Of a stretch of 64,000 nt of DNA, positions 33,954 through 36,189 are shown in pieces; the first letter of the stretch is position 1, and every line of letters begins with the position of its first letter. The stretch is from Gemmatimonadales bacterium. Its GTDB lineage: Bacteria; Gemmatimonadota; Gemmatimonadetes; Gemmatimonadales; GWC2-71-9. Location of the stretch: NCBI GenBank assembly GCA_037189525.1, contig JBBCJC010000001.1, positions 288,001-352,000 on the forward strand. The letters run 5' to 3'. Below the pieces are notes generated by a model, which searched no databases, was not told the DNA's origin, and was given only the letters and a program-made list of their open reading frames with translations. The position numbers and the translations under genes were made by a program.

Positions 33954-35441
33954 TCAGCCCGGTTCGGACCGAGCCTGATCGACTGAGTCCGCAGCAAGCA
34001 CATCAATCGTCGCGGCGTAGTTACCATCCGGCTCCCGGATATGCTCGGCGCCGAACCGGGCCCATTGGAGCGGGGTCGCTTGATGCTCGTTGTCGCGGAT
34101 GCCAAGATCGGCGCCTGCCCACATCAGCATGGCCACGACCTCATCCCGGCCGGCAATCGCCGCGTGATGCACCGGCGTCGCGCCAAACTCGTCCAGGCCG
34201 TTGACCGGGAACCCGGCGCGGAGGCAGGCTCGGACCACCGCTACGTCTCCACGACGGGCGGCATCCCTGCACAGATGCAGATCTTCCGGCTCCAACTGCC
34301 GGAGCAACTCGGGCGACGCCAACCGTTCGGCGCGATCGGTATCGCCTGATGCGCACGCCTCGAGCAGCTGATCTACCGCCGAAAGCGGAACCGGGGTGGC
34401 GCCTGCCTGCTCGAGGATAGCGGCAAGCGCCTCCTGCCCGCTCCGACGGGCCAAGAGCCAGGCAGACCGGCCATCGGCTCGCGCGGCGCGCGGATCCGCC
34501 TCATGATCGAGCAGCAGCCGGATAGTCTCGGGACTTTGTCCGCGCCGCACGGCCACGTGCAGGGCCGTTTCGCGTTCGCCACCTGAGCGTACGTCCGGAT
34601 CGGCGCCGTGGTCCAGCAACCAGCGCAGCCCGCGACCCACCGCCGGATGGCGTTCGATATCCCAGTACCTGAGCAGGAAGTACAGCGGCGTATTGCCCCA
34701 ATCGCCGGTCTGGTTCAGATCGACGTCGAATTCGAGCAGCAACGCGAGCGCCTCCTCGTGAAAGCGCTCCGCGGCATGAAAGACCGACTCTCCGTCGGTC
34801 GGCCTGGCCCCCGCCTCGAGCAACATCCGCGCGATCCCGGGCACGTTCCACAGGCCGGTCACCGCATAGAGCGCCGGGAGGGTGTACTGTGTCGCCGTGA
34901 CATTGGGGTCGGCGCCGCGATCGAGCAGAAGCCTGGCACACGATGCAAGCTCCGCATTGAGCGCCGGGCTGCGGCCGTGAAAGGGCGAGAAGCACAACCA
35001 GCCCAGCGGCGACGAGGGCGGCGTCCCTTCCTGCCGTCGCACCGCATCGGGATCTGCATCGAGCAGATCGCGCAGCTCGCGCACCCGGCCGAGCGCCGCG
35101 GCCACGCCTGGACTGATCGCGACGATTCCCGGTTCCGTCGCCAGAATCTGCTCGGCCCGAGTCCGGTTGGGCTCCAGCACGGCATTCAGGAACGCGGTGA
35201 CCGCGTCATCGACCCCGCGAGACGCCTCCACTCGCGTGCGCAGCCGCGCCCAACTCGCAAACCCGTACTCCCTGGCCACCACCCGCTGGGCCTCGGTCAA
35301 CCGAAGGTCGGTACGTGGTCCCAGCACGGCCTCGACCCGCGCCACCGCTTCCGGTGCGCGCGCAAGAAAGGTGCGATGCAACGCTTTGGCTTCGTGCTTC
35401 AGGTGATCGAGGTGCGGACGTGCGGGAAGGTCCTTCGGCAT
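33954..35441 (-). CDS. Ankyrin repeat protein with conserved small N-terminal helical domain
   Basis: LLDRGADPN, GNTPLYF, ETALHVA, GATPVHHAA, ATPLQWA repeats; N-terminus LPARPHLDHLKHEAKAL...AQRVVAREYGFASW. Confidence 0.9.
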   Translation of the reverse strand: MPKDLPARPHLDHLKHEAKALHRTFLARAPEAVARVEAVLGPRTDLRLTEAQRVVAREYGFASWARLRTRVEASRGVDDAVTAFLNAVLEPNRTRAEQILATEPGIVAISPGVAAALGRVRELRDLLDADPDAVRRQEGTPPSSPLGWLCFSPFHGRSPALNAELASCARLLLDRGADPNVTATQYTLPALYAVTGLWNVPGIARMLLEAGARPTDGESVFHAAERFHEEALALLLEFDVDLNQTGDWGNTPLYFLLRYWDIERHPAVGRGLRWLLDHGADPDVRSGGERETALHVAVRRGQSPETIRLLLDHEADPRAARADGRSAWLLARRSGQEALAAILEQAGATPVPLSAVDQLLEACASGDTDRAERLASPELLRQLEPEDLHLCRDAARRGDVAVVRACLRAGFPVNGLDEFGATPVHHAAIAGRDEVVAMLMWAGADLGIRDNEHQATPLQWARFGAEHIREPDGNYAATIDVLAADSVDQARSEPG

Positions 35442-35453
35442 GGCAACCCCCTT

Positions 35454-35559
35454 TCAGTAACGCCCGGTGTCCGCGTCGTTCGGGCCGAAAGAAGGTCGTC
35501 GATGTCCGGCGTCACTCCCAGGTGGACTGAGTCCTTTCCGCGGACCGGATGCGCCCTGA
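35454..35559 (-). ncRNA. Candidate cis-regulatory structured leader RNA of the ankyrin gene
   Basis: Long closing stem, inner helices and alternative anti-SD pairing (see findings). Confidence 0.6.
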
Positions 35560-35572
35560 CACGCAATAGGGA

Positions 35573-35601
35573 AGCTTAGCGCGCGCCGCAGTGCCGGTCA
35601 A
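35573..35601 (-). promoter_or_regulatory. Sigma70-type promoter of the ankyrin gene
   Basis: TTGACC (35601-35596), 17-bp spacer, TAAGCT (35578-35573). Confidence 0.6.
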
Positions 35602-35658: not shown

Positions 35659-36189
35659 ATGTCGCTGACAATCGAGCGTATTGCCACCACTGCTCTGTCG
35701 CAGAGCGCCCGCAACGCCATCCTCTCGCTGTGCAACGAGGCCTACGATGAGGACCTGACCGGGTACCTGAACGATATCGGCCCGGGCGTCCACCTCCTGG
35801 GCCGGGATGGCCCCGATCTGGTCTCCCACGTGATGTGGGTCGACCGCCGGCTCGAGCCCGGCAATCTGCCGTCGCTCAACACGGCCTACGTCGAACTGGT
35901 AGGTACGCATCCGGCGCATCAACATCGCGGCCATGCAACGGCCCTGATGCAGCGTCTGGCCACCGAAATCGAGTCCTATGATATCGGCGCTCTCTCGCCC
36001 AGTGACCCGGTCTTCTATGAACGACTGGGATGGGAGAGCTGGCAAGGACCGCTCCTGATACAAAGCCCGTCGGGAATCGAAGCCTCTCCCGATGAGGCCG
36101 CGATGATCCTCCGTTTGCCGGCCACGCCCTCCGCGCTCGACCTCACTGCATCGCTCGCCGTGAGTTGGCGGCCGGGTGAAATCTGGTAG
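35659..36189 (+). CDS. GNAT acetyltransferase, AAC(2')-like
   Basis: LVSHVMWVDRRL, TAYVELVGTHPAHQHRGHATALM, FYERLGWESWQGP, WRPGEIW; GAGGA RBS. Confidence 0.85.
   Translation: MSLTIERIATTALSQSARNAILSLCNEAYDEDLTGYLNDIGPGVHLLGRDGPDLVSHVMWVDRRLEPGNLPSLNTAYVELVGTHPAHQHRGHATALMQRLATEIESYDIGALSPSDPVFYERLGWESWQGPLLIQSPSGIEASPDEAAMILRLPATPSALDLTASLAVSWRPGEIW

Follow-up and report, generated by a model that had tools for sequence, protein, structure and literature searches.

A widespread leader RNA with a predicted double pseudoknot precedes genes that share a basic N-terminal domain

The rpsO (S15) leader is an autogenous pseudoknot in the 5′ UTR of the binder's own gene and mediates translational feedback (accessible text of PMC8470358). 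In riboswitches of the interdomain-docking kind, such as the cobalamin kissing-loop and preQ1-III riboswitches, a 5′ domain is followed by a linker and a 3′ hairpin that docks through a loop-loop helix, with occlusion of the RBS, and the ZTP (pfl) riboswitch connects the loop of its 3′ hairpin to its 5′ domain by a long-range pseudoknot (accessible text of PMC10907184). ClpC2 of mycobacteria is self-repressing: with its partial copy of a protease substrate-binding domain, it senses and soaks up its ligand, and it binds its own promoter DNA (accessible text of PMC10030653).

Compared with these systems as the accessible texts describe them, the locus studied here, from a 64,000-nt stretch of a Gemmatimonadales genome (the window), resembles rpsO in that a conserved pseudoknot leader lies directly before the gene of its candidate binder, but differs in having two pseudoknots and an SD-burying hairpin, and in that the candidate binder is non-ribosomal, shows no clear match to a known RNA-binding fold and is joined to exchangeable C-terminal domains. 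As in the cobalamin-type kissing-loop riboswitches, a loop-loop helix joins the 5′ domain to the expression hairpin, but here the RBS lies in the hairpin stem P4 instead of the docking helix, and neither an Rfam match nor matching metabolic genes were found. The leader also shares the long-range pseudoknot of the ZTP riboswitch, with an additional H-type knot and no Rfam match at gathering score or E ≤ 10. ZTP riboswitches precede purine or one-carbon genes, whereas the genes linked to this leader do not encode such enzymes. The likeness to ClpC2, an analogy only, is that relatives of the N-terminal domain occur in fusion with Clp-N, ClpX zinc-finger and Lon-N domains; unlike in ClpC2, the conserved operator would be a covarying RNA fold, and the protein in the window carries ankyrin repeats. 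HDV-like ribozymes have a conserved, longer P3 loop that forms P1.1, and we rejected them as a match since P3 is 11 nt with a variable 3-nt loop in 111 of 142 leaders and the leader itself gave no Rfam hit.

The leader is a real, uncatalogued regulatory RNA class and probably a new translation-control device. The preliminary description had recognized no named riboswitch class, and a search of Rfam 15 agreed, with 0 hits in the window (best E 2.2, unrelated) and 0 hits in 16 related loci, 11 of them of the second leader type described below. The Solibacter-1, Soil-1, Rhizobiales-1 and Rhizobiales-2 motifs, as given in the accessible text of PMC2864571, differ from the leader in sequence. We found no description of the motif in the literature searched, although the supplements of the motif surveys PMC11109978 and PMC5737381 and the clusters of a 2026 preprint may hold one; the main text of PMC11109978 mentions neither ankyrin nor glyoxalase, and one 15-kb supplementary file of PMC8632094 contains no match. 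The accessible text of the preprint (bioRxiv 10.64898/2026.10.21.760802) does not mention ankyrin, and its section 6 describes a motif before glyoxalase, monooxygenase and NmrA genes, which we take for a different element.

Promoter, fold and SD burial

The ankyrin gene stands alone and is convergent with a beta-lactamase-family gene; the features of its upstream region are listed in Table 1. The sequences quoted in the preliminary description, including TTGACC (35601-35596), TAAGCT (35578-35573), the arms of a long closing stem, CCUUCUUUC (35495-35487) and GAAAGGGGG (35455-35447), all lie at the positions given for them. The promoter it proposed recurs in homologues: a sigma-70-like score of at least 8.5 was obtained for 55% of 141 leaders as compared with 5% of shuffles, and in 111 of the 141 the −10 box ends 25–29 nt before GUCCGC. 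A strict consensus promoter scan returned 0 sites because TAAGCT fits the −10 consensus at only 3 of 6 positions. Since the position of the promoter is conserved, we take the motif to be the whole 5′ UTR. An identical 157-nt RNA contig (depth 2, one metatranscriptome study) covers 35397-35553, spanning leader and first codons; it is the sole expression datum and too little to weigh, and the gene's lack of cover counts as no evidence. Divergent from the leader promoter lies a GNAT acetyltransferase gene (35659-36189, +) whose product is distantly AAC(2′) aminoglycoside acetyltransferase-like (best E 5.6e-16; 58.7 bits, where the cut-off is 400), an arrangement confined to close kin.

Table 1. 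Features of the ankyrin-gene leader (window positions) and of the PRK05973-associated leaders (positions within each named locus)
Feature	Positions	Strand	Details
Sigma-70-type promoter	35573..35601	-	−35 box 35601-35596, 17-nt spacer, −10 box 35578-35573; conserved in homologues
Predicted transcription start	near 35566	-	5′ edge of leader motif; from promoter position
Untranslated leader	about 125 nt, between promoter and ATG 35441	-	SD region 35455-35446
P1 hairpin	35551..35564	-	35564-35561 with 35554-35551; loop is the 5′ strand of pseudoknot 1; 35561:35554 covaries (E ≤ 0.025), 35562:35553 E about 0.3
Pseudoknot 1	35519..35558	-	35558-35555 with 35522-35519; H-type, 0 bases between knot and P1; 35557:35520 covaries (E ≤ 0.025); both sides changed in 28 of 96
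P2	35538..35548	-	35548-35547 with 35539-35538; 2-bp stem, 7-nt loop with GUCCGC 35545-35540; paired in 100% of 96
A-rich joint	35537-35535	-	A35535 invariant
P3 hairpin and A35523	35523..35534	-	35534-35531 with 35527-35524; 3-nt variable loop; two pairs covary (E ≤ 0.025)
Variable linker, 5′ knot to 3′ hairpin	35497..35518	-	22 nt here; median 20 (127 leaders)
P4	35446..35496	-	anti-SD 35496-35487 with SD region 35455-35446; 10 bp including three G-U; 35490:35452 covaries (E ≤ 0.025)
P5 hairpin	35462..35485	-	35485-35481 with 35466-35462; 35482:35465 covaries (E ≤ 0.025); loop GCGGAC 35474-35469
Pseudoknot 2 (loop-loop kiss)	35474-35469; 35545-35540	-	GCGGAC (P5 loop) with GUCCGC (P2 loop); compensated in L015, L345, L350, L360
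Ankyrin gene under leader	33954..35441	-	495 aa, ATG at 35441; N-terminal domain, then ankyrin repeats
N-terminal domain	35217..35441	-	first 75 or so residues; basic four-helix unit without a solved fold
PRK05973 leaders	L177:2200-2345; L178:2212-2360; L179:1681-1845	-	genes encode homologous N-terminal domain and helicase-like ATPase

The ankyrin-gene leader by itself is not unusually stable (MFE −54.9, z −0.87; 39 of 200 shuffles were as good), and evidence for its structure was therefore sought in relatives. The aligned leaders predict a double pseudoknot, in which a compact 5′ knot has a 7-nt loop that kisses the loop of the 3′ hairpin burying the SD. The H-type knot would be formed by P1 and pseudoknot 1 and would carry the 2-bp P2 and the small P3 in its long loop. 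Across 96 leaders this fold is 95.2% paired, with 298 cells changed on both sides as compared with 85 in shuffles, a level reached by none of 500 shuffles; the alignment had been fitted to the nested helices P1, P3, P4 and P5 and to neither pseudoknot nor P2. An unguided search of all column pairs (94 sequences, two purpose-written tree-based null models) returned six significant pairs, all within the double-pseudoknot structure; P3 accounts for two of them, and P5, P1, pseudoknot 1 and P4 contribute one apiece. Compensated changes occur at all 7 modelled pairs of P4. P2 by itself was not significant in the unguided search, but it was paired in all 45 further leaders, with C-G (30), U-G (3), G-C (7), A-U (3), U-A (1) or G-U (1) as its outer pair. 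The 6-bp kiss is fixed by the DNA search pattern and was therefore checked on sequences found by other routes: among 45 model-first or gene-first leaders it is compensated in 3, canonical in 41 and misaligned in 1. About 35 leader positions are at least 90% conserved across phyla, most of them likewise in 22 protein-first rows.

The promoter-bounded, structured 5′ leader with a buried RBS put forward in the preliminary description is thus conserved, as fold and promoter are both kept in homologues, but most of its proposed pairings gave way. Its whole structure is 66.2% paired in the 96 leaders, equal to the shuffled mean of 66.2% and reached by 267 of 500 shuffles. From its long closing stem, absent from the MFE fold of the single leader, the GUCCGC/GCGGAC core survives as pseudoknot 2, while the outer arms are only 49–51% paired; a hairpin at ACUCAG is 33% paired without covariation. 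The conserved loop it expected at AGUCCACCU found no support, as those bases and the ‘anti-anti-SD’ form the covarying P3 and a pseudoknot strand.

The pairing between anti-SD and SD, which had also been proposed and is present in the MFE fold, is borne out by homologues: the native duplex averages −12.4 kcal/mol as compared with −9.5 ± 0.19 kcal/mol for permuted partners in 128 of 142 leaders, those with long inserts or an uncertain start being set aside. At least 6 bases of the SD region are paired in 97% of 127 leaders, and the energy needed to open the SD averages 8.1 kcal/mol and reaches 11.0 in this leader, before any contribution of the pseudoknots. In contrast, the alternative partner proposed for CCUUCUUUC, GAAAGG, pairs at −5.06, where permuted partners give −5.11 and shuffled letters −5.65; in 98% of leaders the SD duplex wins, and a toggle between GAAAGG and the SD is not supported. 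A translational switch of riboswitch-like or protein-binding kind remains an apt reading of the leader, but we found no covarying RBS-free (ON) fold among homologous leaders, so that switching as such is inferred. Pairing with the first 100 or so coding bases differs by at most 0.5 kcal/mol, in either sign (87 loci). In folds constrained to leave the RBS free, the GUCCGC/GCGGAC helix is lengthened in 68 of 128 leaders by 5′ bases that pair with the strand behind GCGGAC; this extension, which is like the inner part of the stem in the preliminary description and does not covary, may be an ON intermediate.

Distribution of the leader and the domain behind it

The first 80 residues of the ankyrin protein have one paralogue in their own genome and matches in 19 of 61 related genomes, and the leader motif lies upstream in 22 of 23 such gene-first loci, the lone miss (L019) being a match in a non-coding frame. 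A DNA motif pattern found at least 120 loci in the genome collection, of which the 80 named ones belong to Acidobacteriota, Actinomycetota, Gemmatimonadota, Proteobacteria, Verrucomicrobia, Planctomycetota and others. A covariance model built from 22 sequences (R1) recovers 96 of 100 source sequences and 43 of 44 further pattern loci; one alignment row, L009, is from an unpublished genome (G035), and no claim depends on it alone. The genome studied here has exactly two leaders and two domain genes, one to one. Model R1 detects the leader in 40 of the 151 genomes scanned from this phylum, at as many as five copies per genome, and among the matches listed it is present in about ten other phyla, yet the double-pseudoknot class is missing from Rfam 15. 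One leader, with a short-form domain gene, lies on a viral contig from IMG/VR (L024, 1474-1610, +); beyond it, viral spread amounts to one weak phage match, and we found no viral protein relative of the domain. In four loci (L064, L073, L104 and L105) intact leaders precede gene starts broken by an early stop, frameshift or deletion, from which it follows that leader-linked genes decay often.

The N-terminal domain is encoded behind the leader in 110 of 120 RNA-first loci, among the matches listed, and in 45 of 47 model-first loci. Of the ten RNA-first exceptions, four match the pattern by chance, three lie at contig ends and three have broken starts; the two model-first exceptions are truncated RNAs. 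None of these 167 loci (among the matches listed) showed an intact leader ahead of an intact gene that lacks the domain. The C-terminal parts vary. A Pfam scan of 71 of the 76 called downstream ORFs, excluding five very short ones, found ankyrin repeats in 60, LRR in 2 and no Pfam hit in 9. The domain carries a net charge of +4.1 and is positive in 93% of 56 proteins, whereas the remainder of the protein is acidic, and K/R is conserved at positions 15 (98%), 19 (100%), 23 (80%) and 57 (85%). It is modelled as a four-helix unit (pLDDT 83.5) for which sequence, Foldseek and VIA-align searches found no clear match in the PDB (best Z 4.1), nor a clear one to a known RNA-binding fold; in the ESM Atlas only hypothetical clusters, under 0.9, match it. 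The profile of the domain finds 10,718 matching clusters (50% identity). The RNA class links thousands of unexplained proteins to one regulatory device. Of the best 150 of these clusters, 113 were scanned at the protein level, and Clp-N, ClpX zinc-finger, FliM and FliG-C domains also occur among them. Seven proteins (P0001, P0002, P0040, P0056, P0065, P0071 and P0126) have two tandem copies of the domain, in some cases with a FliM or FliG-C fragment attached, a hint that it functions in pairs.

Profile comparison makes the domain a homologue of the N-terminal part of Pfam Glyoxalase_8 (PF20066; hhalign 96.8%, E 3e-10), which, like the N-terminus of NCBIfam PRK05973, shares with it a homologous helical domain and conserved leaders. 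Unlike Glyoxalase_8 proteins, the protein in the window has no glyoxalase domain and falls below the Pfam cut-off (13.7 bits, E 0.067, against 23.7 bits), and 17 of 41 domain members give sub-threshold matches to PF20066. Around the genes, no family recurs in more than 4 of 36 loci (about 10 kb each, heuristic ORF calls), and we therefore recognize no partner gene; 13 of 31 leader-linked genes end against a convergent gene. A search for a defence link with PADLOC gave 1 marginal hit in 41 domains.

A rearranged leader type and a third clade

Glyoxalase_8-type genes have a rearranged leader of their own, which we call type II. A search of 101 alphaproteobacterial genomes found 11 such genes, all with this leader; of 80 metagenome loci fetched, 74 had enough DNA upstream and 70 of these carry it, the other four being visible variants. 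Model R1 does not detect it. A type II leader has a P1 whose loop pairs downstream, then CC, the six bases of the kissing strand, GG and an A-rich joint, and last a 3′ hairpin that presents the kissing partner in its loop. In 37 leaders the type II fold is 91.5% paired over seven counted helices, with 82 cells changed on both sides vs 29 and covariation of the kiss in 14 and 7 cells. That the 3′ hairpin pairs the SD at its base is a by-eye reading outside the counted helices. P3 lies inside P2 in type II and behind P2 in type I, and an A-rich joint after a 2-bp stem is common to both. Types I and II share one core with a moved hairpin, ahead of homologous domains, which offers a ready specificity-swap comparison. 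One type I leader, L350, carries the type II kiss. The type II linker from pseudoknot 1 to the 3′ hairpin (L198-L277) is short and often C/U-rich, as compared with the even composition of the type I linker. The C-termini of 28 type II proteins comprise ClpX zinc finger (15), Lon-N (6), Clp-N (2), DUF3471 (2), VOC (1), sigma-70 region 4 with ClpS (1) and none (1).

Model R1 misses two variants: upstream of a VOC gene (L158, upstream of 1465, +) a 6-bp hairpin seems to take the place of the kissing loop, and upstream of a phosphotransferase-like gene (L173, upstream of 1686, -) the kiss is shifted and 7 bases long. A third clade of PRK05973 helicase-like genes shows domain homology (hhalign 93.5%) and has a different conserved leader in three loci (Table 1). 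Its 5′ pyrimidine tract can pair with either an internal purine tract or the SD, and this leader could possibly be a true two-state switch.

Proposed mechanism and alternatives

Comparison of homologues shows a promoter at the 5′ edge of the motif, a 5′ knot, an SD-pairing P4/P5 hairpin, a P2–P5 loop kiss and a strict link to one basic domain across unrelated C-termini. The leader is very likely a cis-acting control RNA that buries the SD, and leader and N-terminal domain would form a portable module with the leader as its cis translational operator. For what works the operator, we favor the gene's own N-terminal domain as candidate ligand, a tentative choice. We propose, with a probability of about 0.45, that the domain shuts off translation by binding its own leader, until a signal at the C-terminal part releases the lock. 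Specifically, the SD hairpin unaided would hold translation low, and the kissed form would lock it shut; the basic N-terminal domain of the product would bind the conserved knot and stabilize the locked form, giving negative feedback; and when the variable C-terminal part met its target, the protein would let go of the leader and more protein would be made. The C-terminal sensors would be ankyrin repeats here and LRR, TPR, ClpX zinc finger, Lon-N, Clp-N or VOC domains elsewhere. Such a mechanism, which we hold at a little short of even odds, would join the operator logic of rpsO to the self-repressing decoy logic of ClpC2, as the accessible texts describe these systems.

Several observations speak against autoregulation. 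The domain shows no clear match to a known RNA-binding fold, and the search for a covarying ON fold found none. Simple cis-inheritance would also keep leader and domain linked, and the similarity of the leader tracks that of the domain only weakly (rho 0.21, as compared with 0.09 for the C-terminal part; in pairs whose C-termini are unrelated, rho is 0.11, p 0.076). Since the SD hairpin is stable without protein, a repressor may not be needed, and the factor could be an activator instead. A metabolite pocket would just as typically have invariant paired bases and an A-rich joint.

This last point leads to the main rival, an orphan riboswitch, which we consider somewhat unlikely: a metabolite, ion or antibiotic would bind the 5′ knot or the docking interface, docking would set the stability of the SD hairpin, and the gene family would handle that signal. 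Two domains with a variable linker and a loop-pairing dock are the interdomain-docking layout (accessible text of PMC10907184), and the conservation of about 35 positions, the joint kept after the 2-bp stem in both leader types and the wide phylum range all fit; nevertheless, no other gene family was seen behind an intact leader in the 167 RNA-first or model-first loci (among the matches listed), and the C-terminal parts have no common metabolic theme and the loci no shared metabolic neighbours. The outcome would be new either way, as an RNA-binding domain with its operator or as a riboswitch class with its ligand, and cultured, harmless hosts exist in Streptomyces sp., Gemmatirosa and Methylosinus.

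It is improbable that the leader acts also, or mainly, as a stable small RNA that complexes with the N-terminal domain and keeps the protein inactive or scaffolds it, as the pseudoknot antitoxins of type III toxin-antitoxin systems might suggest. A compact double pseudoknot with its own promoter would suit such a role, as would the RNA contig limited to 35397-35553, a weak point, but the conserved fold includes the SD, whose covariation with the anti-SD argues that the leader works in cis, and we saw neither tandem copies nor a nuclease domain, nor more than the marginal PADLOC hit. It is equally improbable that a general input from the host (heat, the state of the ribosome, an RNA chaperone or an RNase) works the switch while the N-terminal domain does another job. 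The genes stand alone with no regulator nearby, the SD helix of the ankyrin-gene copy has three G-U pairs, and many type II C-termini are protease substrate-binding domains, suggesting a stress link; against this, a thermometer needs no invariant double pseudoknot, no Rfam thermometer family matched, and the SD hairpin is calculated to take 4.4–11.7 kcal/mol to open (10th–90th percentile, 128 leaders). The model of the preliminary description, a long closing stem with an anti-SD toggling between GAAAGG and the SD, is very improbable, for although its pairings are possible in the single sequence (stem −24.2 kcal/mol) and its inner stem could be the ON intermediate suggested by the 68 of 128 opened leaders, it shows no covariation, GAAAGG pairs no better than shuffled letters, and bases of the GAAAGG region are already used by P2 and P3.

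Autoregulation by the domain admits a wider and more doubtful extension, to a large class of one-component translational sensors in which an RNA-binding domain and its cognate knotted leader would be a portable, self-repressing cassette. Repeat domains or decoys of host parts would be plugged into it, and a phage protein or antibiotic hitting the decoy would cause derepression and the production of more decoy. The ClpX zinc finger, Lon-N, Clp-N, ClpS, sigma-70 region 4, FliG-C and FliM would be such decoys, an assignment just as doubtful. The top structural look-alikes of the domain model (window 35187-35441, -) are stand-alone phage proteins of 49–73 residues (E 0.16 and 0.69), including one from Pseudomonas phage Lana named glyoxalase-related; these weak matches could be counter-repressors.
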